A stretch of 64,000 nt of DNA from Vicinamibacterales bacterium (GTDB lineage: Bacteria; Acidobacteriota; Vicinamibacteria; Vicinamibacterales; UBA8438), in the NCBI GenBank assembly GCA_965220695.1, contig OZ244838.1, positions 4,547,293 through 4,611,292 on the forward strand, given 5' to 3'. Position 1 is the stretch's first letter, and each line of letters opens with the position of its first letter. Under the pieces are notes generated by a model. The model saw only the letters and a list, made by a program, of their open reading frames with translations, had not been told where the DNA came from and did not search any database. A program made the position numbers and the translations under genes. Of the stretch, positions 46,087-63,577 are shown in pieces.

Positions 46087-46180
46087 GGTGAGGTGGCCGA
46101 GAGGCTGAAGGCGGCGGTTTGCTAAACCGTTGAGGGGGCTTCAACCTCCTCCCAGGGTTCGAATCCCTGCCTCACCGCCA
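46087..46180 (+). tRNA. tRNA-Ser (anticodon GCU), CCA encoded
   Basis: Acceptor GGTGAGG/CCTCACC, D-arm TGGCCGAGAGGCTGAAGGCG and anticodon stem-loop GCGGT-TTGCTAA-ACCGT, which gives anticodon GCT. A long variable arm, T-arm GGGTTCGAATCCC and 3' GCCA complete the cloverleaf. Confidence 0.9.
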
Positions 46181-47301
46181 ACTTGTTTCTGTAAGTGATT
46201 GTAAATGAAGGACTTGATTTTTTGTGCGTTAGTCTGCAACCCACAATCTGTCCCGCACTAGAGCGGAGCTTGCCGTTCGTACGGGGCCAGCGTGCTTCCC
46301 TCTGGAAGCGTGAAGGCGGAGGCGGTTGTCGTCGAAGTTACGGCCGGATTGCCGACCACATTGAACCAGGGACGGCAACGCGGGAATCGGCAACGACTGA
46401 CGTGGTAAGGCTGTTGAACCGCACGACGTACGCGCGCTTTGACCCACGACACGCGCGGCATGCCCGGACAGATCTGCTCCGACGAGGGCCCGGAGTGGGT
46501 CGCCAGGGCGGTCGCCGGTGGATCATCGCCCTCGACGCCGACAGCGCCTACAGACCACCTGCACCGAAGATCGTGCCACGGCCGGCTTCACCGGCACTCG
46601 AAAAGCGCTTGCTCGGCCACTTCAAGTATGGCTTTATCGACACCGCTCAACTAACATTCGCACCCGATGGGGCCGGTCGTGCCATTGGCACTGCGGGCCG
46701 TCAGGGATGCCAGTGCACAATTCGAGCATTCTCGATGGGCTTGCCGGCGAATCGTCAGGGGGTTGCGGCCATCGCGGCGCCCAGTCCAGCGACAAGGCGA
46801 CCGGGGCGGCGCCAGGTAGGGCGGCAGCGAAGGCGGCGCGATGCAGCGGACAACAAGAGGGTTGGACGTGATCGTGTCCTTGGTCTGTGTGCGATGAACG
46901 TTGCCGCTGGGCGGCAGATTGCAGAAATGCTCACCAGTGCGGATGTGGTGACGCTGACCGAGGCCCGCTTGCCGGCGGCGGTTGTCCTCGCGAAGATAGC
47001 CGCGATTTGCACCGAGTTGGATACGAGCGTCGAGCAGCTCGTGACGTTGTCGGAGATGGGGGTCAACACACCGGGGCAATCGTGGCGATCCTGTCGCCCC
47101 GGTCGCCGAGTGACGAGCCTAGCTCCCGAAAACGCCTTCGCCCGCGCGGTACTTCCGTTGCGTCGACTGCCGCGCGAGCTTCCCATCGGCTACCCAGGGG
47201 TTTCGGTTGCTCGCGCGCCGCAGGCGCAAGCCACACGGGACACGGCAACACACCGGACCCTCAGCATTCCGGTCGCAAAGTAGTAAATCTGGAGGTGCAC
47301 C

Positions 47302-47496
47302 ATGCCAACGCGACGAACTCTTGACAGCGGCGCGCCGTCTCAAGAGACCACCCAAGACTTGAAGAGGCCAACGATCTCCGCCAGAGACGTTGGCGTCACA
47401 CTCCGGATCAGCGACGCGACACTGAAGGAGATAGAACAGATTCAAGAGGAGAACATCAAGGCTGCGCAGGAAGACCAGAAGTTTTCTTGGCGATGA
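47302..47496 (+). CDS. small hypothetical protein upstream of the 526-aa gene
   Basis: 64-aa ORF with a strong RBS (GGAGGTG 4 nt before the ATG). It is charged and helical (ISDATLKEIEQIQEENIKAAQEDQK). No family recognised. Confidence 0.4.
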   Translation: MPTRRTLDSGAPSQETTQDLKRPTISARDVGVTLRISDATLKEIEQIQEENIKAAQEDQKFSWR

Positions 47497-47550
47497 GCTT
47501 CCGGCACGCTCGCTTCTCCCAAGGCATCTCCTCCGACTGTTGGGTCCACC

Positions 47551-49131
47551 ATGACGACACGGTACACGGTTGAGCTACTCGACCGTCCGGACGCTTGGAC
47601 GTTCTTGGCTCAAGCGCTTGGCGGCGATGGCTCTGACGTGGTACGCAATACTCTCCGACATCTCAGCATACTCGGTGTGAAGTCCTACGTTCTCGAAGAA
47701 AAGTACATCGATCGCGACTACTCAGCGGATTACTTGTACTTCTACGCCCGCACGTTCCGGGCCCACGACCGACACTGTAAGCGCGTTCACTTCTTCTCTG
47801 CCGACATATCCCGGCTGCTCCGGCGACCTCTATCAACAGACCGGCTGCGCCGAATCAAGGGTTTCGCAAGCACAACCTATTGCGGCTTTTGCGTCGTTCG
47901 TCCGTTGCCAACCGCGCCAATCGGAAGAACGGTTCTCAAGGGGCGCGTCCGCAGCGGCTTCGACATGGATGCTATCGTCACGTGCCGTGCCGACGTTGAC
48001 GTGAACCTGCTCGGCATCGACCTGCAAGTCACTGGTGCTTCCTTCCTCCAACAGGACGCCCGCGTGGGCGCGTGCGCTCAAGTTGCCATCTGGGCAGGTA
48101 TGCGGCATATGCACGCGCGGTACAAATACAATTGGGTGTCCGTTGCGGACATCACGCGATTCGCTACGCCCACAACCGAAACCGAGTCCATTTCCCTTCC
48201 CGCCGGATCGGACTTCCTCACCTCCGAGCGCATGATTCGTGGAATCAGCGAAGCGGGCTATCAGCCCCTCTGCTTTCGAGGCCGGGACATCGACCGCGCG
48301 ATCCTGCCGTACGTGGAGTCCGGCATTCCCGTCATTCTGGGCCTCAATATCGGCGGGGCCGTAGGTCACGCCGTCACCGTCATCGGCCGCGTATTCGCCA
48401 GGCAGGACACCCCGAGCGACAACGCCATCGACTACGTCCCGGCCTATATCGTCCATGACGACCAAGGTGGCCCCTATATGTGGCTTCCCATGGACGGCGG
48501 CGCTAGCCGGCGATTCTCCTTCGTCGACGATACGACGAAACGTGACACACTCGACGGCACCATCGAGTTGAACGTCCGGAGTCATGCGGTCTTTGCCGTA
48601 GCCCTCATGCCCACGAGGGTCTTCTCGACTGCGGCCGCCGCCGAGCATTCCGCATGGAACCGAATCGACTCCATCTTGCGCGGCATGGCTGGAATCCGTC
48701 AGTTGCTCGATGAGCGCGAACTCACCGTCAACGTCAGGCTCTTGGACGAACTACAGGCAGCGCATGGCGTGGGCCAAATCGTGCTACGGACGTACCTGAC
48801 GTCTGCTGCGGGCTACCGTCGCCACTTAGTCGGAGGCTCGGCTAGCAACGATCTCAAGGATGCAGTGCTCGACCTCCACTTGCCGCACTTCACATGGATC
48901 ACCGAGATTTCTACGATTGATTCGTACAACCAGGCTTCCCCGGGCTTGCGGCGCATCTACGGACATGCGGTTCTCGATGCGACCTCGACCGGCAAAGGCG
49001 GCGACGGCCTGTTGTTGCTCCATCTTCCCGGGCTTCTCGTCACCAACGACATCAATGCTCGAGAGGATCCCGAGAAGATCGCCATCATCCAGGGCGACAC
49101 GTTGTACGAGTGCCGCGAGAAACGCCTCTAG
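47551..49131 (+). CDS. 526-aa protein with a central papain-fold (peptidase C39-like / BtrH_N-like) cysteine peptidase signature; flanking domains unknown
   Basis: The ordered motifs are FLQQDARVGACAQVAIWAG (Gln...Cys), GGAVGHAVTVIGRV (His) and AYIVHDDQGGPY (Asp). I cannot assign the N-terminal ~160 aa (YIDRDYSADYLYFYARTF...CKRVHFF) or the C-terminal ~200 aa. Confidence 0.55.
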   Translation: MTTRYTVELLDRPDAWTFLAQALGGDGSDVVRNTLRHLSILGVKSYVLEEKYIDRDYSADYLYFYARTFRAHDRHCKRVHFFSADISRLLRRPLSTDRLRRIKGFASTTYCGFCVVRPLPTAPIGRTVLKGRVRSGFDMDAIVTCRADVDVNLLGIDLQVTGASFLQQDARVGACAQVAIWAGMRHMHARYKYNWVSVADITRFATPTTETESISLPAGSDFLTSERMIRGISEAGYQPLCFRGRDIDRAILPYVESGIPVILGLNIGGAVGHAVTVIGRVFARQDTPSDNAIDYVPAYIVHDDQGGPYMWLPMDGGASRRFSFVDDTTKRDTLDGTIELNVRSHAVFAVALMPTRVFSTAAAAEHSAWNRIDSILRGMAGIRQLLDERELTVNVRLLDELQAAHGVGQIVLRTYLTSAAGYRRHLVGGSASNDLKDAVLDLHLPHFTWITEISTIDSYNQASPGLRRIYGHAVLDATSTGKGGDGLLLLHLPGLLVTNDINAREDPEKIAIIQGDTLYECREKRL

Positions 49132-50577
49132 CTAGCTAGAGACCATAGCGGGTCTCGTCGGCAGCGTCCCGTTGTCAGCCATGCCTAAGTGGCTGTTCCC
49201 AATCTGGGAACACTCGACGCAGCCAGCGTCGCGCCGCGGCATGTCATAGCCGGCCTCCGCTCGACGGGAGTTCCACCGAAACCACCCAGTCTCGGCGTCG
49301 TCGTACTTCAGACCCGTCATATGGAACAGAAAATCGTCAGCGGCATGTGCGCAGGCGATAGCGTTCATGGTGACCACGCTTGGGGCCACCACACCCGGGT
49401 CGTCGACGTATGCGTATCCGCGCTTGGCCGCTTCCGGCACTGCCTCGTCCTGTAACCGTCCCGGGTTGATGAGGCCGTTACACCACAGGCACCCTTGCTC
49501 GGGTGTCACCATTCGGCTGACGCAGAAGACGTTCCCGACGGCTCCATCCTCGGCAACGGGAATCTTCGCGCCGACCTGGATCCCAGGGATCCCGTACTGA
49601 TGCACAATGGCGTTAAAGAGAAGTCGCGCCCCCATCCTGTCCGCCGCGAGGAAAAGGAAGTCACAGTCCGTGAAACTCGCCGCTACATCCTCCTCGAGGA
49701 AGTCCCTCGCCATCGCCTCGATCCGCGCGTTGCGGTTCGCACGACGAATGTTGCGGCCGGCCATCTGGACTTTGGGTCTACACAATCGGTCCGCAATGAA
49801 CTTTGGGATCCATGAAGGCACGACGGCATCGCGACGCCGAGCTGCGATGAGGCGCGGGAGGTTAGTTTCATCCGCCTGGTCCGGATCCGCGAGTACGAAT
49901 TCTCCCACGCCAAGCCGACCTAACAGTTCGGCCAGTATTGACCCCGCGCCGCCCAGTCCCACGATTCCCACGCGCGTCCGTTGCATCAGTTGCTGGCCGG
50001 CGTCGCCGAACAGACGACTCTGCCGATCGTAAATCCCGACCGCTGCAGCCTGCCTCTCCGGAATCGGGAACAGCAACTGTCGTCGATGACCGATGACCGT
50101 TGCGTGGCGAAGCGGCGCGCGGTCGCAGCCAGGAAACCACAGTTCGCCGGCCGCCGCAGAGCGCGCAAAGACCAACGCGCCGACCGGCATACCTCGCGCA
50201 ATGTCAAGAAGAGCGGGATAGCCGCGTTTGTGTGAGGCCATGTCGACTGCCGAGAACGCGACGGAGTTGGTTCCGCCATGGTTGTGAATGGCGAGGTACG
50301 CCAGCCGCTTGTCTCTCGCGCGGAGGATCCGGCTCTGGATGAACTCCGCTTTCAGCATGCGATAGCCGCGTTTACCCGGCACGTAGTCCACACCGTCCAT
50401 CGCCAGATGGACCTCCCTCGCGACGAGCCTCAGGCCGCGGTCGGACTCGCAAGTGCCGGCAAGGATTACCGCACCGTGCTCGTCGTCATCCCCGGGAAAT
50501 AGGTGGGTCTGGAGTTCAGCGTACAGTCCTGCGGGGATCGTCAGTCTCCAGGATTTCACGTTGGCCTCTTCATCCAT
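49132..50577 (-). CDS. JAB/JAMM metallopeptidase fused to a ThiF/E1-like adenylating enzyme
   Basis: The N-terminus carries E33-HG ... H98-N-H100 ... S109-x-x-D112, which is JAMM-like. The C-terminus has YDRQSRLFG, the Rossmann VGIVGLGGAGSILAELLGRLGVGEFVLADPDQADETNLPR, and two CxxC pairs (CLWC, CVEC) as in MoeB/ThiF/E1. GTG 50559 is an alternative start (GTGA overlap with the E2 stop). Confidence 0.8.
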   Translation of the reverse strand: MDEEANVKSWRLTIPAGLYAELQTHLFPGDDDEHGAVILAGTCESDRGLRLVAREVHLAMDGVDYVPGKRGYRMLKAEFIQSRILRARDKRLAYLAIHNHGGTNSVAFSAVDMASHKRGYPALLDIARGMPVGALVFARSAAAGELWFPGCDRAPLRHATVIGHRRQLLFPIPERQAAAVGIYDRQSRLFGDAGQQLMQRTRVGIVGLGGAGSILAELLGRLGVGEFVLADPDQADETNLPRLIAARRRDAVVPSWIPKFIADRLCRPKVQMAGRNIRRANRNARIEAMARDFLEEDVAASFTDCDFLFLAADRMGARLLFNAIVHQYGIPGIQVGAKIPVAEDGAVGNVFCVSRMVTPEQGCLWCNGLINPGRLQDEAVPEAAKRGYAYVDDPGVVAPSVVTMNAIACAHAADDFLFHMTGLKYDDAETGWFRWNSRRAEAGYDMPRRDAGCVECSQIGNSHLGMADNGTLPTRPAMVSS

Positions 50578-50948
50578 CGGATGACCTTCAGCAACTTCAG
50601 CGCCGCGGTGTCGGTCTCGGGGTTCAGCCTGTTCGATCGGCGCGAGATCTGGATAACCGGCTGGCCTCGAAACGTTGCGGTCCCGAAGCCGCCTCCCAGA
50701 CCGGCGCCGTCGGACCGCGCTAGGTCCGGATTCGTGAAGTGCGGATAGACGTCAGCGTAGGGGTACTGGAACGTGATCTGGAAGCCAATCCAGACCTGAG
50801 CCTGCACGTAGGGGGAACCCATGGGAATGTCCCTCACCATGACGATTGCCCCGCCGGTGCCGTCCGGTTCCGTCTCGACGGCACACGAATCGATCGTGCG
50901 ACGGATTTCCTCGATTGCCGTGGCCACTCCGGGGACGATCGTGCTCAT
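50556..50948 (-). CDS. E2/UBC-like protein (prokaryotic E2 family)
   Basis: 130 aa. WIGFQITFQYPYADVYPHF resembles the UBC core (F.i.i.FP..YP...P...F...HPN). Its operon position is between the Ubl gene and the E1 gene. Confidence 0.55.
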   Translation of the reverse strand: MSTIVPGVATAIEEIRRTIDSCAVETEPDGTGGAIVMVRDIPMGSPYVQAQVWIGFQITFQYPYADVYPHFTNPDLARSDGAGLGGGFGTATFRGQPVIQISRRSNRLNPETDTAALKLLKVIRWMKRPT

Positions 50949-51214
50949 GAGTTGTCGTCATTCTCGATCGCGAGGAACCGGTCGTTGGGATGTACCTCGA
51001 TGAACTGGTCGTCGCCGATCAGATTCGTCTTCCCGCCGCCGAGCTCGATGCTCAGCACGAAGTCCTGCTTGATGTTCACGCCTTGCTCGATTGCCACCTT
51101 CTTGATGTTCTCGCCCGTCTGCTTTGACCCGTCGAGCACCACCGGCTTGTCGTTCAACGTGATTTCGACCTTCCCGTCGTCGATCCCGCCCTTCACGTGT
51201 TCATCGCCTGACAT
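50945..51214 (-). CDS. single-domain ubiquitin-like beta-grasp protein (multiubiquitin-type)
   Basis: 89 aa. KVEITLNDKPVVLDGSKQTGENIKKVAIEQGV...DFVLSIEL....NLIGDDQFIEVHPNDRFLAIE follows the beta-grasp pattern of the prokaryotic multiubiquitin family. RBS AAGAGGTG is present and there is an ATGA overlap with the E2 gene. Confidence 0.55.
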   Translation of the reverse strand: MSGDEHVKGGIDDGKVEITLNDKPVVLDGSKQTGENIKKVAIEQGVNIKQDFVLSIELGGGKTNLIGDDQFIEVHPNDRFLAIENDDNS

Positions 51215-51287
51215 GTCTGCACCTCTTTCAATGTGGACTCAGGATTGCTATAATGCAACATACTGCATGTGACCATGGATTGCAAGA
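51215..51287. promoter_or_regulatory. divergent promoter/operator region between the Ubl operon and the XRE regulator
   Basis: A perfect TATAAT lies at 51249-51254. There is a direct repeat GGATTGC at 51242-51248 and 51277-51283, and an inverted repeat ATGCA-N7-TGCAT at 51253-51269. Confidence 0.4.
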
Positions 51288-51665
51288 ATGAAATTACGAG
51301 AAAAACGCACAGACCGCTTCGACGTCGTCGCGCTGCATGCCGCACTGGACTCCGAACGCCGTTCGCGCCGCATCGCCTGGAAGGATGTGGCGGCGCAGTC
51401 GAACGTGAGCGCATCGACGCTCACCCGTCTGTCCCAGGGCCGTCAACCCGACGTCAACAGCCTCGCAGCTCTCACTGCCTGGCTCGGGATGTCAGCAGAC
51501 CACTTCATGCGCACCGAGACCATTGACCAATTCGGCGCAGCAAGCCCGCTTGCCCAGATCTCCTCCATCATCCATCAAGATCCCAAACTGAATCCCGAGG
51601 GGGCGGTTGCCCTCGAGGAGTTGATCCGGGCCACGTATGCGCGCCTGAGAACCGACAGCGACTGA
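51288..51665 (+). CDS. XRE/Cro-C1-type helix-turn-helix transcriptional regulator
   Basis: IAWKDVAAQSNVSASTLTRLSQGRQPDVNSLAALTAWLGMSADHF is a typical HTH_XRE. It also has a ~45-aa C-terminal extension. Confidence 0.8.
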   Translation: MKLREKRTDRFDVVALHAALDSERRSRRIAWKDVAAQSNVSASTLTRLSQGRQPDVNSLAALTAWLGMSADHFMRTETIDQFGAASPLAQISSIIHQDPKLNPEGAVALEELIRATYARLRTDSD

Positions 51666-52225: not shown

Positions 52226-53488
52226 TCAGGGCCAGCGCACCGAGACGGTGCCGTCGTCGTTGCTGACGAGGATGTCGAACGCGCGCAGCGTTCGCAGCCA
52301 GCGGGGCGCGTTGCGCTTGACGAGGATCGCTTCGTAGTCGGTGGCCGGATCGCGGTAGGGGGTGCCATCACGGAGGACGGCGAAGGCGCAGCGTGCGAGC
52401 TTGTGCGCGGTGGCGACGATGGCACGCTTGTAACCGCGGCGCACGGTGAGCGCCTTGTGGTGCGCCTGGAATTGGCAATTCTTGGTGCGCGCGGCGGCAT
52501 GGGCGCACTCGACGAGCACGGCGCGCAGCGTGCGGCTGCCCCGGCGGGTGCGCCCGGTGCGGCGCTTGCCTGCGCTCTCGTTGTTGCCGGGACACAGACC
52601 GGCCCACGCGGCGAGGCGACTGGCAGCACCGAACACGCTCGGGTCGGGACCCATCTCACTCAGGATGGCGCAGGCCGAGGTGTGGTCGATGCCGGGGATG
52701 GTCTCCAGCAGGCGGCACTGCCTGGTGTAGTCCGTGAGGGCGGTGTCGATGTGCCGGTCGAAGTCCTGCACGCGCCGGTCGAGGTCGTCGTGTCCGGCGA
52801 TGAGGTCGGTGAGCAGGAGGCGATCGGTTTCGCACAAGGTCAGGCGCAGGGCATCGCCGAGGAGTTCCAGGCGGGTGCGGACGTGCCCGCTGAGCGAGTC
52901 CAGGATGTCCGTGCGGGGCCGTCGGGCGACCAGGCCGTCGAGGATGCGCCGGCCATTGAGGCCGAAGATGTCGCTGAGCACGCCTCCGATGCGGATGCCG
53001 CTCCGGTCGAGGACCTTCTGCACCCGGTTGCGCACCTGGCTGCGCTGCCCGACCAGCGTGCGCCGATGGCGAACCAGATTCCGCAGGTCGCAAAACGCCT
53101 CGTCGGGCACGAAACTGGGACGTCCGAGCCCGAACTGGCACACCCGGGCCAACCAGCGGCTGTCTGCGATGTCGGTCTTGCGGCCGCGCAGTTGCCGCAC
53201 GTGCTGCGCGTGCAGCAATTGCGCCTCGATGCCGGCCGCGGTGAGTGCGCGCCACGGCGCCTGCCAGTAGACGCCGGTCCCCTCCAGGGCCGCCGCCTCG
53301 ACGCGATGGCCGGTCAGCCAGGCGGCCAAGGCGTCCAGGCCGCTTGCCAGCGCACTGAAGGTGCGTGTCTCGCAGGTCGGCTCACTGCCGGGCGCTGCAC
53401 AGAGCCGCACCGTGGCTGTGATCGCCATTTTGTGCACATCGAGTCCCGCGGCGCGGGGATGGACAACGTGCAGGTCATCGTTCATCAT
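52226..53488 (-). CDS. IS110-family transposase
   Basis: Start at MMNDDLHVVHPRAAGLDVHKMAI after AGGAGG. The DEDD N-domain and the C-terminal LLETIPGIDHTSACAILSEMGPD...F........AWAGLCPGNNESAGKR block are present. Confidence 0.9.
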   Translation of the reverse strand: MMNDDLHVVHPRAAGLDVHKMAITATVRLCAAPGSEPTCETRTFSALASGLDALAAWLTGHRVEAAALEGTGVYWQAPWRALTAAGIEAQLLHAQHVRQLRGRKTDIADSRWLARVCQFGLGRPSFVPDEAFCDLRNLVRHRRTLVGQRSQVRNRVQKVLDRSGIRIGGVLSDIFGLNGRRILDGLVARRPRTDILDSLSGHVRTRLELLGDALRLTLCETDRLLLTDLIAGHDDLDRRVQDFDRHIDTALTDYTRQCRLLETIPGIDHTSACAILSEMGPDPSVFGAASRLAAWAGLCPGNNESAGKRRTGRTRRGSRTLRAVLVECAHAAARTKNCQFQAHHKALTVRRGYKRAIVATAHKLARCAFAVLRDGTPYRDPATDYEAILVKRNAPRWLRTLRAFDILVSNDDGTVSVRWP

Positions 53489-53890
53489 CGGTTCGCCTCC
53501 TGTAGGGGTACGGGGGGTGGTGGAAGCGGGGCGATCGGTCGGACGGAGAACTCGCGCCCCGAGGGCGCGGTGCACTTTGCTGCACGTCCACGGCGTGAGG
53601 CCGGGCACATTGCGGGGCTCGACGCCGACCGACCAGGTCAGTTTAGCGTCGGGGAACGTCCACCATTCGAAATAACGACCACTGTCCCGCCTCCGCCGCT
53701 ATTGTGCATCGGCCCCCGATGGAACGGCACGGAGACGCTAGCCGAACCGGTCGCCCGTCTCGCCCATTTCATGGCTTCGGGGTGGTGAGGTGGGACCGAC
53801 CATGACGGTTTAGCGGGTAGAGTTCGATGGTCGCGTGAGATCCAATTTTTTGAACCTGTACTTTTCTAGGGGATCTGGCATAACTGTGGG

Positions 53891-55333
53891 GTGCCACGGC
53901 AACGTCCCCGGACCGAGCAGGATCCGCGCGATACTCGCATTGAGGAACAAGAGCGAGAGATCGCACGACTGCGCGAGGAGTTGACGCGGGTCGAGGGCGA
54001 CCGGGATTGGTGGAAGCGCCGCAGTGAACACCTCAAGCAGCAACTCGACGCCGCGCGGCGGGCAGGATTTCGGCAAGCCGCCCCGTTCGCCAAGGACCGG
54101 CCGCAAGGTCGCGGCGGGCGTCCCGGCCGGCGAGCGGGTGCGCGCTATGGCCGGCAGGCGTGCCGCCCGCGGCCGGCGCAGGTCGACGAGACCCACGCGG
54201 CGCCGGCGCCGGCCGCCTGTCCGGACTGCGGCGGCGCGGTCGAGGTGACCCGTGTGGCGTCGCAGTATCAGGAAGAACTCCCCAAGGTGCGCCCCATCGT
54301 GCGGTGCTTCGAAATCGAGGTTGGCCATTGCTCCCAGTGTCGGCGGCGCGTCCAGGGCCGCCACCCGCTGCAGACCTCCGACGCGATGGGGGCGGCCAGC
54401 GTGCAGCTCGGCCCCGCGGTCGTCGCGCTGGTCGTCGAGATGCACACGCACCTGGGCGTGCCGCTGGCCAAGATCGCGCACCTGTTGAAGACGCAATGCG
54501 GATTGACGGTTACGCCCGGAGGCCTCACGCAGGTGCTGCATCGCACCGCCCGCGAGGCGGCGCCGACCTACACGGCATTGTGCGAGCAGGTGCGGGAAAG
54601 TCCCATGGTCACGCCGGATGAAACCGGCTGGCGCGTCGGCGCCGTCCGCCACTGGCTGTCGGTCTTCGCCGCGCCGCAGACGACGGTCTACGCCATTTGC
54701 CCCGGCCGCGGGTTCGACGCTGCCGCCACCGTGCTCGGGGCCGACTACAACGGCGTGCTCGTGCGCGACGGGTGGGCGCCGTATCGCCGCTTCACCCACG
54801 CGCTGCACCAGACCTGTCTGGCTCACCTGATCCGGCGAGCGCGGCAACTCCGAACCGATCATCCGCGCAGCCCGTGGGCCGCCCGGGTGCAACGCGTCCT
54901 GCAAGCCGGCCTCGACCTGCGCGACCGCCGCGACGCCGGGCTGCTGAGCGACCATGGTCTGGCAACCGCTCGCGGCCAACTGCTCGCCCAACTCGGTCGG
55001 CTGATCGACAAAGCGCCGACGCTGGACGCCGCCGACCGCTTCGCCGCGCACCTGGCCACCGAATTCCCTGCGGTATTCGGCTTTCTGTGGGACCCGTCGG
55101 TCAACGCCACCAACTGGCGCGCCGAACAGGCCATTCGGCCCGCCGTCGTCACCCGCAAGGTCTGCGGCGGCAATCGCACCCGGCACGGCGCCGACACCCA
55201 GCAGGTGCTCGCCAGCGTCGTGCGCATCGTTCACCAACGCCACCTCGACCTCACCCCGCTGATCGCCACCATCCTCCACGCCACCGACCCCGTCGTCCCC
55301 GAACCACTCCAACGCCCGCCCTCGCCGACGTGA
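53891..55333 (+). CDS. IS66-family transposase (single-ORF type)
   Basis: Leucine-zipper-like N-terminus, zinc finger CPDCGG......C..C, and VTPDETGWRVGAVRHWLSVFAAPQTTVY with a DDE core typical of IS66 TnpC. Confidence 0.9.
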   Translation: MPRQRPRTEQDPRDTRIEEQEREIARLREELTRVEGDRDWWKRRSEHLKQQLDAARRAGFRQAAPFAKDRPQGRGGRPGRRAGARYGRQACRPRPAQVDETHAAPAPAACPDCGGAVEVTRVASQYQEELPKVRPIVRCFEIEVGHCSQCRRRVQGRHPLQTSDAMGAASVQLGPAVVALVVEMHTHLGVPLAKIAHLLKTQCGLTVTPGGLTQVLHRTAREAAPTYTALCEQVRESPMVTPDETGWRVGAVRHWLSVFAAPQTTVYAICPGRGFDAAATVLGADYNGVLVRDGWAPYRRFTHALHQTCLAHLIRRARQLRTDHPRSPWAARVQRVLQAGLDLRDRRDAGLLSDHGLATARGQLLAQLGRLIDKAPTLDAADRFAAHLATEFPAVFGFLWDPSVNATNWRAEQAIRPAVVTRKVCGGNRTRHGADTQQVLASVVRIVHQRHLDLTPLIATILHATDPVVPEPLQRPPSPT

Positions 55334-55365
55334 CGGGTTGCAACGCCGCCACGACCGCTCCACGC

Positions 55366-56492
55366 GCCGACTCGCTGAGCATTCGCACGTTTCTGGATTT
55401 CGCCCTGCACAAGGCCCCGCCGGACCACTCGATGCTGTCGCGCACCCGTCGCCTGATTGACCTCGAGACCCATCAGGCAGTGTTCACGTGGGTGTTGCAG
55501 CGACTGGCCGACGCCACGCTGGTCGTGGGGCGCACGGTGGGCATCGATGCCACGACGCTGGAAGCCAATGCGGCGATGCGGAGCATCGTGCGGCGGGACA
55601 CGGGCGAGAGCTACGACGCATTTCTGACCCGGCTGGCCGAGGCGTCCGGCCTCACGACCCCGACGCGCGCCGAGTTGGCCCGGTTCGACCGGACCCGCAA
55701 GAAGAAGGGCTCGAACGACGACTGGACCCACCCGCACGATCCGGACGCGAAGATCACGAAAATGAAGGACGGCCGCACGCATCTGGCGCACACCGCCGAG
55801 CATGCGGTCGATCTGGACACAGGCGCCATCGTGGGCGTGACGGTGCAGGACGCGAGTGCGGGCGACACGACGACCCTGGTCGACACGCTCGTCACGGCTG
55901 CCGAGCAGGTCGAGGCGGTCGGCGCGCCGGGGATCGCGGAGGTCGTGGCCGACAAGGGGTATCACAGCAACGAGACGATGGTCGGGTTTGCGGCCATCGG
56001 CGTCCGCAGCTACGTCTCGGAGCCGGACCGCGGCCGGCGCCACTGGAAGGGCCAGGCGGCGGCGCGGGACGCGGTGTATGCCAACCGGCGGCGGATTCGC
56101 GGCGCACGCGGGAAACGGCTGCTGCGGCAGCGGGGCGAGCTACTGGAACGGCCCAACGCGCATCTCTACGAGACCGGCAGGATGCGCCGCGTCCATCTGC
56201 GCGGGCATCCCAACATCCTGAAACGGCTGCTCGTCCAGGTCTGCGGCGTCAATCTCGGGTTGCTCATGCGGCACCTGACGGGCGTGGGCACGCCGCAGAG
56301 CCTCCAGGGCCGCGCGTCGGCGCTGGTGGAGGCGCTGATCGGCCTCCTGAGCGGCTCCTGGGGGCGTGTGCGGCGCTTCTGGGCCCCGGAGCGCCATGAT
56401 CGGCCCGATTCGTCGTCGGATGGTCCGGCGACACGCCAATACGGACACGCGATTCTCGATTGACAATCAGCCCCTTCTGCCACGGGCTGCTA
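55366..56492 (+). pseudogene. 5'-truncated IS5/IS1182-like element (transposase lacking about 95 N-terminal residues)
   Basis: ADSLSIRTFLDFALHKAPPDHS... is collinear with residue ~96 onward of the intact copy at 60047-61456. The terminal repeat ...GCCACGGGCTGCTA(G) lies at 56478-56492. The upstream part is replaced by the IS66 element. Confidence 0.8.
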
Positions 56493-57686
56493 GTGCTGCG
56501 CCACGATTAAAGATTAGGGCACGCGGAACCGATAGAGTTCCCATGCAGAAAAAGTATATCGTCCGACTCACCGCCGAGGAACGCGAGGTCTGTCAGCAGA
56601 CGGTCCGCAAGCTCAAGGGCAGCAGCGAGAAGGTACGCCGCGCGCAGATTCTCTTGCAGGCCGATGCGGACGGACCGGGGTGGACCGACCAGCAGATCGC
56701 CGACGCCTTTTCGTGCCGCACCAAGACGGTCGAAAACATTCGCCAACGATGCGTACTGGCAGGATTCGAGCGGGCGCTGGAACGCAAACGACGGCCGTCG
56801 CCCCCGGTCCCCAAGCTGCTCGACGGCGAACAGGAAGCGCAGGTCATCGCCCTGCGTCTGGGCCCGCCCCCCAAGGGCTACGCCAACTGGTCGTTGCGGC
56901 TGCTGACGCGGCGGGTCGTCGAGTTGCAGATCGTCGAGTCGGTCAGCCGCGAGACCCTCCGGCGTACGCTAAAACAAACGGGATGACCCGGCGGAAAATC
57001 GAGTACTGGGTGATCCCGCCGGAGGCCGACGCCGAGTTCGTGGCGCACATGGAGCAGGTCTTGGACACCTATGCGCAACCGTACGACCCGGCTTGCCCGG
57101 TCGTGTGCATGGATGAGCAGCCGGTGCAACTGGTCAAGGAAACGCGCCCGCCGATGGCCGCCACGCTGGCGCGGCCCCGCCGCGTCGACTACGAGTACGA
57201 ACGGGCCGGCACGGCCTCGGTCTTCCTGTTCAGCGAGCCGCTGGCGTGTTGGCGGCGGGCGACGGCGCGGGCCCGGCGGACGAAGGCGGACTGGGCGGTG
57301 GAGGTCGCCGACCTGTTGGAGGGCCGCTACGCCGACTGCCCGAAAGTCACCCTGGTGTGCGACAACCTCAACACGCACACGCCCGGCGCCTTCTACGAGG
57401 TGTTCGAGCCGGCCCGGGCTCGGGAACTGGTTCGTCGCCTGGAGTTCTGCTACACGCCGAAGCACGGGAGCTGGCTGAACATCGCCGAGAATGAACTGAG
57501 TTCGATGACGCGTCAATGCCTGGACGGGCGCCGCATCGGCGACCTCGAGACGCTGCACGGCGAAGTGTCGGCGTGGTCCACCGACGTCACTGCTACGCAA
57601 CGCGGTGTCGACTGGCAGATGCAGGTCGACGATGCGCGCCGTAAACTCAAGTCCGTCTATCCGAATATTTTGACGTGACGAAGCAC
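56493..57686 (+). mobile_element. IS630-family insertion sequence (1194 bp) with TA target duplication
   Basis: The inverted repeats are GTGCTGCGCCACG on the left and CGTGACGAAGCAC on the right, matching at 11 of 13 positions. The element is flanked by TA at 56491-56492 and 57687-57688. Confidence 0.85.
56543..57678 (+). CDS. IS630-family transposase, two overlapping frames (orf1 56543-56986, orf2 to 57678)
   Basis: orf1 has HTH domains (IVRLTAEEREVCQQ.., WTDQQIADAF). orf2 is the DDE domain (VVCMDEQPVQL, LVCDNLNTHTP, KHGSWLNIAENELS). The frames could be joined by a -1 slip at AAAA (56971-56974) or by restart at the ATGA overlap (56983). Confidence 0.85.
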
Positions 57687-57713
57687 TAGGAACTGTGAAC
57701 CAGACGGGGAAGC

Positions 57714-59660
57714 TTACGGATCGACGTTACCTAAGCGCCGTTCCTGGAAGGCGACTACCCACTTTTTCAACGTGCGACCGCGACGCTTAGCCATTGACAT
57801 CGAAAAGTGGCTCCTTAGGAGGAACTCTTCCGCTGCCCCCGAGTCCAGCTCATGCAGATCTCTGGCACTTGCCCACTCTTTCCACCGCTGCGCCACCATG
57901 CTCAGTTCGAACTGGACTGAGAGAAAGTCCAGAATCCTGGACTCAGGAAGTTGTGCCAATCGTTGGCCAGAGTCTGTGATCGTACCGTCCTGGCCCAAAA
58001 GTCCCAACACTTTCGCGCCATGTTTCATGTAATCTATGTGCCGCTTGGAACTAGAGGTGCCCGCCATCCGCATCTCTGCTGGGCTCGGTTCAGAACCCGC
58101 GCTGACAAGCTTTACAACTTCGATAATGCGGTCGAGGCGATCTTGTTGAGGAACGTCCCCAGACGTTAGCGCTCGTTGCGGCTGAAGAGAATCCCCTATA
58201 GGCATCGTTGCATTCGTTGACGAGGCGCCCACGGAAACGAGCTCCGATCGGGATTTGGACTCGCCAGACACAGCGGTTGTAACGACCGTATCGAGCGTGA
58301 AGAGGTACTGGCGTCCTATGACCTTCTGGAGAAGAACCGAACGTCGTCCGGGAGGGATGTCGGCCCTTAAGGCCTTGCCGCCCTCAGTCACGATCTCTAG
58401 ATGGCCATGTCGCTGACTGGCGCCCTCGAGCGTCGCCTGGATCTGACTCCTAGTGCTGATTCCTTCCGGTTCCTGTTTCATCCGCTCGATCGCGGGCGCA
58501 ACGCGTCTTGATCGGATTCTCGTACGCGCACCTTCAAAAGATCTGGCGTCAGTCAGTCCAATAGTCGCGTCCAGATTTCTCTGAGCAAGCGTCTCAATGA
58601 ACTGAAAGAAGTGGTCCTTCGACACAGCACTCAATTCGCTAGAGGAAAAAGCCTGCTCTGGATCCTGGGCAAGTCGCATCATGCGCTCAAAAGCGACTGA
58701 GAACACCTCTGGTTGCTTGACCGACACAATGAAGCGGAGTAGGAACGATCCAGGTGCCGGAACCAGCGCATATGTCTTCATCGTCGACGCGACATCAGGA
58801 GCGACCGAAGCCACAGCCTCACGGACTGCTATTCTCCAGGAATGAACCAACTTCTCGAAGGTCCCGATTGCAAGGCGCCCCTTATCGGGGTCAGAGCCAA
58901 TAAGCGTGACTTGCTCGACGATCCCTCCACCTCGCTCAGCCTGTTCCCGACACTCGTAGCTAGCGCGAGCAGTGGCTAGCGCTTCGCCGACAAGCCGTAA
59001 CACAGCAACTGGCAGCGCCGATGGTGCCAGTTCCGAGAAAGTGCGCTCCTGCTCTACAATCCGATCACGATGATCGATTGGGAGGTCCGGTGGGGCGTCA
59101 GATGACAGTGCCCGGATCGAGTCGGCAACCTCCGAGCCCATCCCCGCTATGAGGGACACGGAGTTCAGATGAGTCACTAGTATTTCGGCTTGCTGCTGAC
59201 TCAGAAGTCTAGACAGCAGCTTCCGTTCTCCCATCGAGATGAGCAAGCCGCAGATTCCGTCCTGGACGATGGGTGAAGAATCCACGCAGTAAGTCGCAAA
59301 CGATCCGAAACTCGGTGCCAGAACCGCCGTGAGCAAGTCATCGTGGGCACGGTACCGGGTCAAAGAGGAGAGCACGTTTGCCAGTGTTGACTGGTCCTCG
59401 CTCCACGAGGTGGTCAAGAAGTGGGCCAGAGGTGCCCAAAGATAGGGTGGTTGTTCCGATGCGGTCTTGGACAAAGCGTACGACACAACACGCCGAAGAT
59501 AGACGTTGTCGGAGGTCGCTAGGCAGCTCCAGGTGAGGATGCCAGCGTTGCTCGGGTCTTCCTTGATCGCTGTCTCTACAAGAGTCAAGATCAGGTCTTC
59601 ATCGTGGCTGTCGATGGCGCGACCTAACCTTCGGAGGTAACCACTTGAGCTGGGAGTCAT
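57714..59660 (-). CDS. 648-aa hypothetical protein (helical-repeat-like N-terminus, possible winged-helix-like C-terminus); no family recognised
   Basis: A long ORF in visibly lower-G+C DNA (about 47-55% in hand-counted lines). It is not a high-GC antisense artefact. No catalytic motif identified. Confidence 0.65.
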   Translation of the reverse strand: MTPSSSGYLRRLGRAIDSHDEDLILTLVETAIKEDPSNAGILTWSCLATSDNVYLRRVVSYALSKTASEQPPYLWAPLAHFLTTSWSEDQSTLANVLSSLTRYRAHDDLLTAVLAPSFGSFATYCVDSSPIVQDGICGLLISMGERKLLSRLLSQQQAEILVTHLNSVSLIAGMGSEVADSIRALSSDAPPDLPIDHRDRIVEQERTFSELAPSALPVAVLRLVGEALATARASYECREQAERGGGIVEQVTLIGSDPDKGRLAIGTFEKLVHSWRIAVREAVASVAPDVASTMKTYALVPAPGSFLLRFIVSVKQPEVFSVAFERMMRLAQDPEQAFSSSELSAVSKDHFFQFIETLAQRNLDATIGLTDARSFEGARTRIRSRRVAPAIERMKQEPEGISTRSQIQATLEGASQRHGHLEIVTEGGKALRADIPPGRRSVLLQKVIGRQYLFTLDTVVTTAVSGESKSRSELVSVGASSTNATMPIGDSLQPQRALTSGDVPQQDRLDRIIEVVKLVSAGSEPSPAEMRMAGTSSSKRHIDYMKHGAKVLGLLGQDGTITDSGQRLAQLPESRILDFLSVQFELSMVAQRWKEWASARDLHELDSGAAEEFLLRSHFSMSMAKRRGRTLKKWVVAFQERRLGNVDP

Positions 59661-59923
59661 GCGAAGGCGATCCCTCGAATGACTTCGATATCGACCCGTG
59701 CGTTGGACTCTCGCGCGGAAAGGTTCCGGTCTTGAAACGATTGATACAACGGAGCGTCAACCGGACCGCTACGGATCAGCCTATCGGCTCTGCTGAAAGC
59801 CGCAGCACGGCACTCACGCTGACTCGTGGTGCACTGGTTCCGCAGTTGATCAAGACCTTCCAGCGCTCGGCCTTGGGTGACGGGCCGCTGGTTGGCCCAT
59901 GGGTACGACCGACTGGGATTCAT
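59657..59923 (-). CDS. 88-aa hypothetical protein, translationally coupled (ATGA) to the 648-aa gene
   Basis: Start at MNPSRSYPW (59923). Its stop overlaps the ATG of the downstream ORF at 59657-59660. No family recognised. Confidence 0.35.
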   Translation of the reverse strand: MNPSRSYPWANQRPVTQGRALEGLDQLRNQCTTSQRECRAAAFSRADRLIRSGPVDAPLYQSFQDRNLSARESNARVDIEVIRGIAFA

Positions 59924-60046
59924 GTCTGAGCCTTGAACCTGCAGTCTGCCACGGTGACGCGGGGTGCCACTTCTTGGATGCAAGACGGCCGCTCCGTTGA
60001 CTTTAAACCGAAACGGGTCGCTTCTTGGGCATATCTAGTGTATCCA

Positions 60047-61456
60047 CTAACAGGCTGTGGCAGAACGGCTACCTTGTAGCGTGAGCGGAAGGAGTTGATG
60101 GCGCTGCGTGGGGTGGGCAATCCACGACGAATCGTGCGGATCAAACAGACGATCCGCTCCGGAAAGCGCTACATGGCGCCAGCGGCGGCTGAGAGCCCGG
60201 CTCAGAGCGTCAAGGAGTGCCCTGGCGCGGCCCTGGAGGCTGCGCGGGGTCCGGACGCCCGTCAGTTCGCGCATGAGGAGGCCCAGATTCGAGCCACAGA
60301 CGTGGACGAGCAGACGCGATCGTTGACAGTTGGAGTGTCCGCGCAGATGCACGCGGCGCAATCGCCCGGTTTCGTTGACGTGAGCGTGGGGACGCTCGAG
60401 GCGTTCCCCACGCTGCCGCAGCAGGCGGCGCCCGCGGACGCGCCGAATGCGCCGCCGGTTGGCGCAAACGGCCGCCCGCGCAGCAGGCTTTCGCCGCCAG
60501 CAACGCCGTCCGCGGTCCGGCTCCGACACGTAACTGCGGATTCCCAACTCGGCCAACGCAACCAGGGTTTCGTTGCTGTGATATCCCTTATCGCCGACCA
60601 CCTCGGTGAGGCCGGCCCCGGCCGGCAGGACCGCCTCGACCTGCTCGGCCGCGGTAATCAAGGTCTCGACCATCGTCGTCGTGTCACCGGCATCGGCATC
60701 CTGCACGGTGATGCCGACGACCGCTCCGGTCTCCAGGTCGATCGCGTGCTCGGCCTTGTGTGCCAGCCGGGTGCGGCCGTCCTTCATGCGGGTGATCTTC
60801 GCGTCCGGGTCCTGCGGATGCACCCAATCGTCGTTGGACCCCTTCTTCGGGCGCTTGCAGTCGAAGCGGGCCAGCTCGGCGCGCGTCGGTGTCGAAATGC
60901 CGGACGCCTCGGCCAGCCCGCGCAGGAACGTTTCGTCGCCCTCGCCCGTGTCCCGGCACACGATGCGCCGCAACGCGGCATTGGCTTCCAGCGTCGTCGC
61001 ATCGATGCCCACGGTCTTGCCTCGGACCAGACCGGCGTCGGGCAGCCGCTGCAGCACCCACGTGAAGACCGCTTGGTGCGTCTCCAGGTCGATCCGCCGT
61101 CGCGTTCGCGATACCGTCGAATGGTCCGGCCCCGCCTCGTGCAGCGCGATGTCCAGGAACTGCCGCAGGCTCAACGAATCGGCCACCCGCCACGCGATCG
61201 CCCGTTCCGAGTCCAGGCCCTCGAAGTAGCGGAGCAACAGCATCCGGACGTAGCGGCCCGGCGCCACACTCGGCCGGCCCACCCCGTCGGCGTAGAACCT
61301 CGCGCACAGGCTCTCGACAAAGGCGTCGAAATCCGCCTCGTCGAGGACGCCAATCAATCGTTCGTAGAACGGCTGACCTCCGCCTCCCGGCACGTCCGCG
61401 CTGGCCACCCACATCGACGGCTGCCGCGCGCGGCAGCGCCGTTTACCCATTGCCAT
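60047..61456 (-). CDS. IS5/IS1182-like DDE transposase (469 aa)
   Basis: PFYERLIGVLDEADFDAFVE, RPSVAPGRYVRMLLLRYFEGLDSER (DUF772-like N-domain), VGIDATTLEANAA and VVGDKGYHSNE. It is collinear with the truncated copy at 55366-56463. Confidence 0.85.
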   Translation of the reverse strand: MAMGKRRCRARQPSMWVASADVPGGGGQPFYERLIGVLDEADFDAFVESLCARFYADGVGRPSVAPGRYVRMLLLRYFEGLDSERAIAWRVADSLSLRQFLDIALHEAGPDHSTVSRTRRRIDLETHQAVFTWVLQRLPDAGLVRGKTVGIDATTLEANAALRRIVCRDTGEGDETFLRGLAEASGISTPTRAELARFDCKRPKKGSNDDWVHPQDPDAKITRMKDGRTRLAHKAEHAIDLETGAVVGITVQDADAGDTTTMVETLITAAEQVEAVLPAGAGLTEVVGDKGYHSNETLVALAELGIRSYVSEPDRGRRCWRRKPAARAAVCANRRRIRRVRGRRLLRQRGERLERPHAHVNETGRLRRVHLRGHSNCQRSRLLVHVCGSNLGLLMRELTGVRTPRSLQGRARALLDALSRALSRRWRHVALSGADRLFDPHDSSWIAHPTQRHQLLPLTLQGSRSATAC

Positions 61457-61525
61457 GGGCAGGAGTGTAGTACACGGGAACGGTCTTGTCGATCCCTATC
61501 CGCGACTTTCACCACAGCCTGCTAG
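60047..61525 (-). mobile_element. intact IS5/IS1182-like insertion sequence (1479 bp)
   Basis: The ends are CTAACAGGCTGTGGCAGAAC on the left and the reverse complement of CTAGCAGGCTGTGGTGAAAG on the right. They are bounded by CTAA/CTAG (YTAR-like). Confidence 0.8.
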
Positions 61526-61580
61526 CCTGAACAACAATACATTGTGGTCTCTGGAGAAAAAATGCGACAAACTCTCACGG

Positions 61581-62432
61581 ATGGTTTGGGTTCGAGAGGT
61601 GGCGCCGCCGGTCCAACAGGCTCTTCAGGGCACCGTCGGCGCGAAACCCTTCCTGAAATGGGCCGGCGGCAAGCGGCAGATTATCGGTGAGCTGAGAGGC
61701 CGTGTGCCGGCCAGGTTCGGGACGTATCACGAGCCGTTTCTTGGGGGCGGAGCCCTCTTCTTCGCGATGATGCCACCGACGGCGATTCTCAGCGACACGA
61801 ATGAGCGCCTCATTCGAGCGTATCGAGGGGTCCAACAAGAGGTGGAGTCGGTTGTTGAGCAACTGTCAGCAATGCCACCATCTAGAGAGTTCTTCTTGTC
61901 TCAACGGCAGAGGTTGATCGATCTTGACTCCGATGTTGATGTCTCCGCCTGGATGATCTATCTGAACCACACTGCATACAACGGACTCTATCGCGTTAAC
62001 AAGAGCGGTCGGTTCAACACTCCTTTTGGGCGATACACAAACCCGACCATCTGTGACGCAGAACGACTACGGGCGTGCTCGAGTGCTCTTTCAGGCGCCG
62101 CTCTTCGAGTCCAGGGCTTCGAGCAAATCCTCGACACAGCGGCACCTGGGGATTTCGTGTACTTTGACCCTCCCTACGTGCCGATATCCGTCAACGCCTC
62201 CTTCACGCGGTACACCCCACAGCAGTTCAAACTCAGCGACCACGAGAGGTTGCGCGACACGGCACTGGAATTGAAAAGAGGTGGAGTTCATGTGTTGTTG
62301 TCGAACTCAGACGCGGCAGAGGTTTTGGCCCTGTACGAAAGGGACTTCACGATCGACAGGATACAAGCGACTCGCATGGTCAACAGCGACCCGCGAGGAA
62401 GGGGCAGGGTCACCGAGACGCTGATCACATGA
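61581..62432 (+). CDS. Dam-family (D12 class) N6-adenine DNA methyltransferase, no adjacent restriction partner recognised
   Basis: FLKWAGGKRQ, EPFLGGGALFF (FxGxG SAM motif) and FVYFDPPYVP (DPPY catalytic motif). Start at ATG 61581. Confidence 0.85.
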   Translation: MVWVREVAPPVQQALQGTVGAKPFLKWAGGKRQIIGELRGRVPARFGTYHEPFLGGGALFFAMMPPTAILSDTNERLIRAYRGVQQEVESVVEQLSAMPPSREFFLSQRQRLIDLDSDVDVSAWMIYLNHTAYNGLYRVNKSGRFNTPFGRYTNPTICDAERLRACSSALSGAALRVQGFEQILDTAAPGDFVYFDPPYVPISVNASFTRYTPQQFKLSDHERLRDTALELKRGGVHVLLSNSDAAEVLALYERDFTIDRIQATRMVNSDPRGRGRVTETLIT

Positions 62433-62904: not shown

Positions 62905-63577
62905 CGGAGCGCGACCGGGATCGGTGGAAGCGCCGCAGTGAACACCTCAAGCAGCAACTCGACGCGGCGCGGCGGGCAGGATTCCGGCAGGCCGCGCCCT
63001 TCGCCAAGGACCGGCCCCAAGGTCGCGGCGGGCGACGCGGCCGGCACGCTGGTGCGCACTACGGCGGGCAGGCGTGCCGGCCGCGTCCGGCGCAGGTTGA
63101 CGAGACCTGCCGAGCACCGGCGCCGGCCGCGTGTCCGGACTGCGGCGGCGCCGTCGAGTTGTCCCGCGTAGCGACGCAATATCAGGAAGATCTCCCGGTG
63201 GTGCGCCCTATCGTGCGGCGCTTCGACATCGAGGTCGGCCACTGCTCGCCGTGTCGGCGTCGCGTCCAGGGCCGCCACCGGCTGCAATGCTCCGACGCGC
63301 TGGGAGCGGCCGGCGTGCAACTGGGTCCCGAAGTCGTCGCGCTGGTCGTGCGGCTGCACACGCACCTGGGCGTGCCGCTGGCGAAGGTCACGCACCTGCT
63401 CCGGACCCAGTTCGGCCTGACCATCACACCGGGAGGCCTCGCGCAGGTGCGGGTCTCTCCCGTGGTCACGCCGGATGAAACCGGCTGGCCCGTTGGCGCC
63501 ATGCGCCACTGGCTGTGGGTCTTCGCCACGCCCCAGACGACGGTCTACGCGATTCGCGCCGGCCGCGGGTTCGACGA
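62905..63577 (+). pseudogene. degenerate second IS66 transposase copy (no start codon, internal deletion, 3' truncated)
   Basis: RDRWKRRSEHLKQQLDAARRAGFRQAAPFAKDRPQGRGG...CPDCGGAVELSRVATQYQEDLPVVRPIV... parallels 53990-54730 of the intact copy. About 20 codons are missing between GGLAQV and SPVVTPDETGW. Homology stops at GRGFD. Confidence 0.8.

Follow-up and report, generated by a model that had tools for sequence, protein, structure and literature searches.

A candidate Bub-like conjugation operon and a papain-fold peptidase pair carried together in a 4.4-kb cassette of a Vicinamibacterales bacterium

Do the six genes packed into positions 47302-51665 of a contig from a Vicinamibacterales bacterium (Acidobacteriota) belong together, and if so, to what kind of system? 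The window, meaning the whole stretch of 64,000 nucleotides analyzed here (contig OZ244838.1 of assembly GCA_965220695.1, positions 4,547,293 to 4,611,292 of the forward strand), had been described in a preliminary way as carrying genes for a ubiquitin-like protein (Ubl), an E2-like protein and a fusion of a JAB/JAMM metallopeptidase to an E1 adenylation domain (JAB-E1), with a divergent XRE regulator and a convergent papain-fold gene of 526 aa (p526) preceded by a 64-aa open reading frame (ORF; p64). All six ORFs were found again at the same coordinates, and the domain calls, namely a beta-grasp Ubl, an E2-like protein, a JAB-E1 fusion, an XRE regulator and a papain fold, were all upheld (Table 1). 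Our reading, to which we give a probability of roughly 55%, is that the locus is a 4.4-kb horizontally transferred cassette of two co-inherited modules: an XRE-controlled operon resembling the Bub conjugation operons (module A, 51665 to 49132) and a papain-fold peptidase pair, p64 and p526 (module B, 47302 to 49131).

The junctions between the genes are as tight as first described. An ATGA at 50945-50948 overlaps the Ubl and E2 genes, and the E2 stop lies inside the start of JAB-E1 (50556-50577), where starting from an alternative GTG (50559) would turn the overlap with that stop into GTGA. The p526 and JAB-E1 genes abut stop-to-stop at 49131/49132.

The six-gene cassette across phyla

Scanning one genome per species gave 48 loci, distributed over Acidobacteriota, Gemmatimonadota, Chloroflexota, Nitrospirota, Rhodothermales, Binatia, Thermodesulfobacteriota, Spirochaetia, and Alpha- and Gammaproteobacteria, including Bradyrhizobium isolates and a conjugative Mesorhizobium plasmid. 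All six genes stood in the same order and with the same spacing, as a 4.4-kb unit, in about 38 of these 48 reference-genome loci from nine or more phyla, so the arrangement is more than chance. The DNA similarity (65-88%) begins about 45 nt upstream of p64 and stops at the XRE stop codon, and the flanks are unrelated; in the window, the conserved DNA is confined to 47.29-51.69 kb. At the same position across the cassette loci, XRE was 59-96% and p64 44-75% identical.

The association was also approached in reverse, by a metagenome scan with a JAB-E1 profile that returned 62 loci. Each JAB-E1 of at least 64% identity, the group called the cassette clade here, was followed by p526 wherever the contig was long enough (about 20 metagenome contigs in addition to the genome loci), indicating that the 526-aa gene, which could have been a neighbor only, is not there by chance. 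In addition, the pairwise divergences of p526 and JAB-E1 were correlated (Mantel test, r=0.74), a value reached in 0 of 2000 permutations. This co-inheritance is asymmetric: in the cassette clade the trio of Ubl, E2 and JAB-E1 never occurs without p526, but p526 occurs without the trio.

The remaining genome loci are deletion derivatives, several of which retain an intact p64-p526 pair and a JAB-E1 stub. The derivatives are L010 (the same as L002), L011, L026, L030, L035, L036, L046, and L049-L051. Some have lost the trio and XRE and kept p64 and p526 intact, in certain cases with a C-terminal JAB-E1 stub, and others have a truncated p526 joined to XRE or to E2. In L002/L010, the surviving pair lies beside DISARM-like genes (helicase, DUF1998/MZB, and PLD).

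The conjugation trio and its regulator

The trio has a biochemically characterized counterpart in Type I Bub ('6E.1'), reported by Ye, Gong, Chambers and Corbett with the structures PDB 9ea4, 9ea8, 9eae, and 9eav (bioRxiv 10.1101/2024.11.21.623953). A Type I operon encodes a Ubl-E2 fusion, BubAB, which the JAB domain of BubCD cleaves behind a conserved glycine; it further encodes BubCD itself, which is a JAB-E1 fusion, and a serine protease, BubE (DUF6527), by which conjugates are removed. In the Bub pathway, a Ubl~Tyr oxyester forms on the E1 crossover loop and is followed by a Ubl~Ser oxyester on E2 (bioRxiv 10.1101/2024.11.21.623953). Judged by sequence, the trio of the cassette is a clear relative of BubCD, BubB and BubA.

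The strongest likeness is in JAB-E1. Its residues 11-418 aligned with residues 8-400 of Citrobacter BubCD at E=7.8e-23 (PDB chain 9ea4, the best PDB match), and Pfam ThiF matched residues 183-406 at 1.5e-29. In this alignment, E33, H98, H100, and D112 fall on the BubCD JAMM residues E28, H91, H93, and D104, and R242 falls on the adenylation arginine R227. Both the JAMM-like motif (E33, H98-x-H100, S109-x-x-D112) and the C-terminal ThiF/E1 domain with its GLGGAGS loop, which had been noted in the preliminary description, correspond to functional parts of BubCD. The JAMM residues were invariant among 52 sequences from the cassette clade and from a sister clade whose JAB-E1 proteins are 43-58% identical. 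However, Pfam Prok-JAB did not match the JAB domain here, though it matched the canonical BubCD proteins. The E1-E2 models of PADLOC matched the adenylation core alone, residues ~180-380 of JAB-E1. Across the same 52 sequences, sister clade included, Tyr390 of the crossover loop was invariant, and it lies 8 residues before APSV, the same offset as Tyr370 of BubCD. Tyr388 was considered as the equivalent of BubCD Y370 and rejected, because the sister clade has Gln there but keeps Y390 without exception. A structural zinc site is the simplest explanation for the two CxxC pairs, and the E1 catalytic residue is likely Tyr390 and not a cysteine.

The E2-like protein is more remote. The UBC-like core proposed for the 130-aa ORF stood in part: it is a distant relative of Prok-E2_E, a family matched by 10 of 23 E2 homologues at E<=0.1 (best 4e-5), but the protein itself remained below the Pfam cutoff and its similarity is weak. 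Ser102 was invariant in the family alignment and in the 52 sequences with the sister clade, and it aligned with BubB S333 in two canonical BubB proteins (phmmer, MAFFT). D66 and R103 were also invariant, and the sole cysteine, C22, was not. Ser102, rather than a cysteine, is therefore a likely candidate for the E2 nucleophile.

The Ubl is a single beta-grasp of the Multi_ubiq family (PF14452), passing the Pfam cutoff narrowly (24.9 bits vs 24.5, 2.4e-5), which bears out the beta-grasp pattern noted earlier in the 89-aa ORF; sister-clade Ubls with extra domains matched Multi_ubiq at 4e-33 and 1e-17. Searches of the PDB with the Ubl family, by sequence and by profile, gave nothing useful. The architecture of the Ubl varies among loci (L021, L024, L047; L037-L045; sister-clade L076, L077, L082). 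Some Ubls of the clade have two beta-grasp domains by tandem duplication, rhizobial copies have Gly/His/Pro-rich N-terminal extensions, several sister-clade Ubls have His-rich N-termini, and L119-L121 encode multi-domain Multi_ubiq proteins.

The C-terminus of the Ubl is its most distinctive feature. It reads ...RFLAI-x-NDDNS in every cassette locus and ...DDNS, rarely DDVS, DDKS or EDS, in the sister clade, and serine was the last residue in all of about 70 genes examined. Sister-clade Ubl genes that do not overlap E2, from Actinomycetota to Acidobacteriota, end in serine likewise, so DDNS is not a by-product of overlapping coding. Only one of the roughly 70 loci, L090 (2264-2890 of metagenome contig Ga0307428_1007794), has Ubl and E2 fused in frame, and the junction DDDNS/RSIS comes right after the serine; elsewhere the two are separate. 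A canonical Type I Bub control has the tail KDVNNG/EEP (G229), which is similar in character to the serine tail. Together, the fusion junction and the canonical tail suggest that serine takes the place of the reactive glycine. Since every gene stops exactly at the serine, the Ubl seems to need no trimming. The invariance of the C-terminal serine, the place of the fusion junction and the likeness of the canonical tail lead us to infer that this serine is probably the activated residue.

The divergent regulator was assigned as XRE in the preliminary description. A match to a PHROG transcriptional repressor (9e-6) agrees with this, but the Pfam profiles HTH_31, HTH_26, and HTH_3 gave sub-threshold matches only. 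The TATAAT and the repeats reported between XRE and Ubl were both found, the TATAAT inside a 17-nt direct repeat (51242-51258 and 51277-51293). This region holds two operator-like sites, the first built around TATAAT as spacer, the second overlapping the start codon of XRE. At least 80% of 37 loci, drawn from different phyla, have kept both sites, and the placement of the sites fits repression by XRE, the presumed repressor. In sister-clade plasmid copies, the helix-turn-helix (HTH) protein is paired with an ImmA/IrrE peptidase, like the CapH and CapP regulators that many Bub operons carry.

The p64-p526 peptidase pair

The p526 protein had no match in Pfam, NCBIfam, PADLOC, PHROGs or PDB sequences. 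An exhaustive search nevertheless gave a family of 3,667 representative clusters (2,747 at E<=1e-10), whose members are mostly 500-560 aa long and similar over the full length; one distant member had a marginal Peptidase_C39_2 match. In an alignment of 36 sequences (25-56% identity), 14 residues were invariant, including Gln168, Asp169, Cys175, His273, and Asp304. An AlphaFold2 model built on a diverse alignment (predicted local distance difference test, pLDDT, 90; predicted TM score, pTM, 0.92) has three domains. When the central domain was compared with the PDB by Foldseek, it matched staphopain A (1.8e-4), staphopain C (3.1e-4), and the C39 domain of ComA (3.3e-4, target TM 0.69), and also PCAT1 and LahT, with E values of about 2e-4 to 7e-3 and probability 1.0; the N- and C-terminal domains had no structural matches. 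The papain-like Gln/Cys/His/Asp order seen earlier in the 526-aa gene thus coincides with invariant columns and a matching fold, and p526 is predicted to be a three-domain cytoplasmic papain-fold cysteine peptidase of clan CA. A first AlphaFold2 model from 27 close homologues (pLDDT 60, non-significant fold matches) was superseded by the diverse-alignment model, and PDB searches with p526 by sequence and profile gave nothing useful. Compared with the staphopains (C47) and the C39 domains of ComA, PCAT1, and LahT, p526 shares the central fold and the order of the catalytic residues. It differs in having no detectable sequence-family membership, no ABC transporter and no secretion signal, two extra conserved domains, and always a small upstream protein.

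That small protein, p64, had no match in Pfam, NCBIfam, PADLOC or PHROG. It consists of a variable polar N-terminus, a conserved strand and long helix, and an invariant C-terminal FSWR. Distant p526 relatives in Mesorhizobium, Nitrobacter, Sphingomonas, and one metagenome-assembled genome have a homologous ORF of 57-63 aa upstream, and on this conservation p64 is taken as the partner of the peptidase. Near these distant relatives no Ubl, E1 or E2 was found; they adjoin integrases, an HNH gene or phage capsid genes. These standalone pairs suggest that p64-p526 is an old autonomous two-gene unit of mobile elements.

The whole may work as follows. The Ubl would be made with its reactive end (...DDNS) already exposed, and the E1 domain would use ATP to adenylate the carboxylate of the C-terminal serine. 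The Ubl could then pass as an oxyester to Tyr390, from there to Ser102 of E2, and finally to lysines of target proteins, and the fused JAMM peptidase would reverse the conjugates and process the Ubl in the rare fused forms. That the trio works like Bub, with adenylation followed by oxyesters on Tyr and then on Ser and by transfer to lysine, is a well-grounded prediction from homology and conserved catalytic residues. Module B, with its small helical protein and a cytoplasmic peptidase with the putative triad Cys175/His273/Asp304, would be an autonomous mobile-element unit that takes the place downstream of E1 held by BubE in canonical operons. It would most likely be either a second, Ubl-directed peptidase or an output governed by conjugation. 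The weakest step is that p526 acts on the Ubl pathway at all, in either of these two roles, deconjugation or controlled output, and it is from co-inheritance that we infer a coupling of the two modules. The entire cassette might act as a stress- or phage-induced unit; a role in defense or stress is suggested only by context, such as the defense-type neighbors of related loci (DISARM-like, AbiE, patatin), the conjugative plasmid setting and the island with tRNA and insertion sequences. A bolder proposal, in which a serine-activating Tyr/Ser oxyester Ubl pathway has been wired to a widespread mobile-element cysteine peptidase family to form a new immunity or stress module, with protein tagging either controlling that peptidase or being undone by it, should be taken as tentative.

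Rival readings, genomic setting and significance

Several observations weigh against the two-module cassette as we read it. On the side of the chemistry, we know of no precedent for an E1 acting on a C-terminal serine; all characterized ubiquitin-type modifiers known to us are activated at a C-terminal glycine. The conserved CxxC 363/366 near the crossover loop could in principle be catalytic. The E2-like protein scored only 17.2 bits against the Prok-E2_E cutoff of 25 (E=0.0044) and was matched to BubB by phmmer at only E=1.3, and the profile of the E2 family found nothing in the PDB. In addition, Arg104 stands at the position of the His partner H335 in Type I Bub, so that the S-x-H motif is lacking, and D66 is two columns off BubB D299, so that the alignment of the Asp is ambiguous. 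On the side of the coupling, the sister clade has the XRE/Ubl/E2/JAB-E1 quartet without p526, and p64/p526 relatives occur without any Ubl, E1 or E2. At least five genomes keep an intact p64-p526 pair after loss of the trio; the coupling may thus be physical linkage only. With regard to defense, PADLOC gave no system-level hit at the locus, and protection against phage has so far not been demonstrated for any Bub operon (bioRxiv 10.1101/2024.11.21.623953). Because both modules exist alone, the six genes are well supported as a co-inherited set and only putatively one functional unit.

Simple linkage of two unrelated systems is accordingly a serious rival, although we think it somewhat unlikely. 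A self-sufficient Bub-like quartet would here travel with a separate p64-p526 pair, for example a toxin-antitoxin-like or abortive-infection protease and inhibitor, after an ancestral juxtaposition that was spread by horizontal transfer. Such a history would agree with the standalone pairs in integrase and prophage settings of Mesorhizobium, Nitrobacter, and Sphingomonas, with the deletion derivatives that retain p64-p526 intact, and with the convergent transcription of the modules from separate promoters. The downstream neighbors of the sister-clade quartets are also unrelated, comprising a caspase domain, Schlafen plus AbiEii, a terminase, and patatin and GGDEF. It is harder to reconcile with linkage alone that no cassette-clade trio lacks p526 where this could be tested, that the unit has remained whole while moving among nine or more phyla and its converging stop codons are zero to a few bases apart, that the halves have diverged in a correlated manner, and that canonical Bub operons always have a second peptidase at the same position.

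Among the sister-clade loci, the quartet lies beside patatin and an ORF that resembles a nucleotidyltransferase by eye in L099 (1047-2944), beside Schlafen AlbA_2 and the AbiEii toxin in L082 (5973-7591), and beside a phage terminase in L103 (7790-9334). A 520-aa hypothetical protein near the Rhizobium sister-clade operon of L119 was set aside as an unrelated NTase-conflict protein.

It is very unlikely that the locus is just an ordinary member of Type I Bub with nothing new. The likeness is considerable: no PDB entry matches the whole JAB-E1 fusion better than BubCD, the Ubl is of the Multi_ubiq type and the E2, more remotely, of the Prok-E2_E type, and a crossover-loop Tyr and an E2 Ser replace the catalytic cysteines in the same manner. 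The order Ubl, E2, JAB-E1, the HTH regulator, and the association with mobile elements at tRNA genes are also shared. However, BubE/PF20137 (DUF6527) was absent from the window, the cassette loci and the sister clade, yet it was found in both of the canonical Bub operons used as controls. The proteins of these controls, Multi_ubiq+Prok-E2_E (362 aa), Prok-JAB+ThiF (456 aa) and the PF20137 BubE, were all detected, so the detection pipeline works. Moreover, Ubl and E2 are split here, the Ubl ends in ...DDNS and not in ...NNG with its conserved Gly, the E2 lacks the S-x-H motif and has an Arg in place of the catalytic-site His of Type I, the JAB domain has diverged beyond the reach of Prok-JAB, the E1 keeps a CxxC pair not found in Citrobacter BubCD, and a papain-fold module is attached. 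On this comparison, the cassette cannot be counted as a canonical Type I Bub operon. The published catalogue of Bub was compiled from operons that contain DUF6527 (bioRxiv 10.1101/2024.11.21.623953), so a clade without BubE would have escaped it. In one canonical Type I control, L123 (1296-4004, Bradyrhizobium sp. USDA 3458), an ORF encodes E2 only and directly upstream of it lies the reverse transcriptase gene of a group II intron, which suggests that the BubAB gene is interrupted there.

The preliminary description could not place the locus in a characterized system, and no gene-for-gene match to Bil, CBASS or canonical Bub was found, given the missing BubE, the split Ubl and E2, and the terminal serine. 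Type II Bub ('6E.2': BubA, BubBD, BubE) is similar in its stand-alone Multi_ubiq Ubl and cysteine-free Tyr/Ser chemistry; there, however, E2 is fused to E1 and BubE is present, whereas here E1 is fused to JAB, BubE is lacking and the Ubl end is different. Bil (BilABCD) and the Cap2/Cap3 genes of Type II CBASS (an antiphage signaling system based on cyclic oligonucleotides) resemble the cassette in having E1/E2/JAB conjugation in mobile defense loci and a JAB peptidase for processing or reversing conjugates. In Bil, the JAB is separate, the E1 combines tandem adenylation domains with a catalytic-cysteine domain, and the E2 is a cysteine enzyme, in contrast to the single adenylation domain fused to JAB here; Type II CBASS relies on an E2-E1 fusion by which a CD-NTase is conjugated, and the cassette has neither such a fusion nor a CD-NTase. 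An earlier description of this six-gene composition was not found in the literature searched, the coverage of which was limited.

A peptide pathway of the RiPP type (ribosomally synthesized and post-translationally modified peptide), conceived partly after the microcin C and pantocin pathways with p64 as precursor, p526 as C39-type leader peptidase and the ThiF-like enzyme as an MccB/PaaA-type modifier, is hardly credible: a small ORF does precede a C39-like peptidase fold and MccB is among the weak E1 matches in the PDB sequence search, but a transporter is missing, p64 has no double-glycine leader and p526 no signal sequence, p64-p526 pairs exist without any ThiF enzyme, and the E1 is accompanied by its own beta-grasp, E2 and JAMM partners as in Bub.

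Table 1. Features of the cassette and its surroundings (positions in the window; residue numbers where given).
Feature	Position	Strand	Remarks
p64, small protein	47302-47496	+	64 aa ORF
p526, papain-fold peptidase	47551-49131	+	526 aa ORF
p526 domains	residues 1-130; ~150-350; 360-526		N-terminal; central, papain-fold; C-terminal; both flanks alpha/beta
JAB-E1 fusion	49132-50577	-	481 aa ORF
E1 adenylation domain	49132-50031	-	residues ~183-481; GLGGAGS nucleotide loop, R242, CxxC 363/366, Cys pair 453/456, crossover-loop Tyr390
JAB/JAMM metallopeptidase domain	50068-50577	-	residues 1-~170; E33, H98-x-H100, S109, D112
E2-like protein	50556-50948	-	130 aa ORF
Ubl	50945-51214	-	89 aa ORF
Two operator-like sites	51242-51293		ATTGC-N6-GCAAT type, 35 nt apart, in the Ubl/XRE promoter region
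XRE regulator	51288-51665	+	125 aa ORF, divergent from the Ubl operon
tRNA-Ser(GCT)	46087-46180		1.1 kb from the cassette
IS110 transposase gene	52226-53608	-	right of the cassette
IS66 transposase gene	53891-55333	+	right of the cassette
DDE_3/IS630-like transposase gene	56680-57678	+	right of the cassette
IS5-like DUF772+DDE_Tnp_1 transposase gene	60047-61456	-	right of the cassette

The setting of the cassette is that of an island, as had been proposed from its low G+C content, its insertion sequences (IS) and the nearby tRNA, all of which were found. The G+C content of the cassette region is 0.60-0.63 vs about 0.67-0.70 in the surrounding window, a tRNA-Ser gene lies to its left, and transposase genes are packed densely over 52226-61456 to its right. 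Partial IS66 copies are repeated at 53993-54292 and 62907-63206, and at 54583-54719 and 63440-63576 (88% identity). No integrase was found within the cassette, no terminal repeats at its ends, and no repeat of the tRNA 3' end within the window. A promoter and terminator scan gave nothing that exceeded the shuffled expectation, and no terminator between the converging p526 and JAB-E1 genes. The Rfam scan of the window found the tRNA alone; a sub-threshold Plastid-psbl-rps4 match (46122-46177, minus strand), antisense to the tRNA-Ser, is almost certainly an artefact of tRNA structure.

The roughly 1.1 kb that separates the tRNA from the cassette (46181-47256) holds no convincing gene, its long ORFs being without family matches, and only patches of it are shared with L007, the closest locus, which has the tRNA flank in common with the window. 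The ORFs in the gap between the tRNA and p64 and directly after XRE were rejected, as they had no family matches and look spurious. Farther to the right, a 648-aa ORF (57714-59660, minus strand) without a Pfam or PHROG match lies in the stretch of lowest G+C of the window (0.565-0.583), near a D12-class N6-adenine DNA methyltransferase gene (61455-62432, plus strand). These two may be what is left of a restriction-modification locus or another defense locus in the same island.

If our reading of the cassette is right, a clade that crosses phyla and uses a serine-ended modifier in need of no processing would widen the known E1 chemistry. This clade, without BubE, lies outside the DUF6527-based Bub catalogue and marks a gap in it. 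The p526 family, with about 3,700 clusters unannotated in every library tested and found in prophages, integrative elements, and plasmids, is a promising candidate for a new function in mobile elements. A culturable host exists in Mesorhizobium sp. AR07 (plasmid pMspAR07b), and a variant of Bub tied to a distinct peptidase could help to reveal the purpose of Bub tagging.

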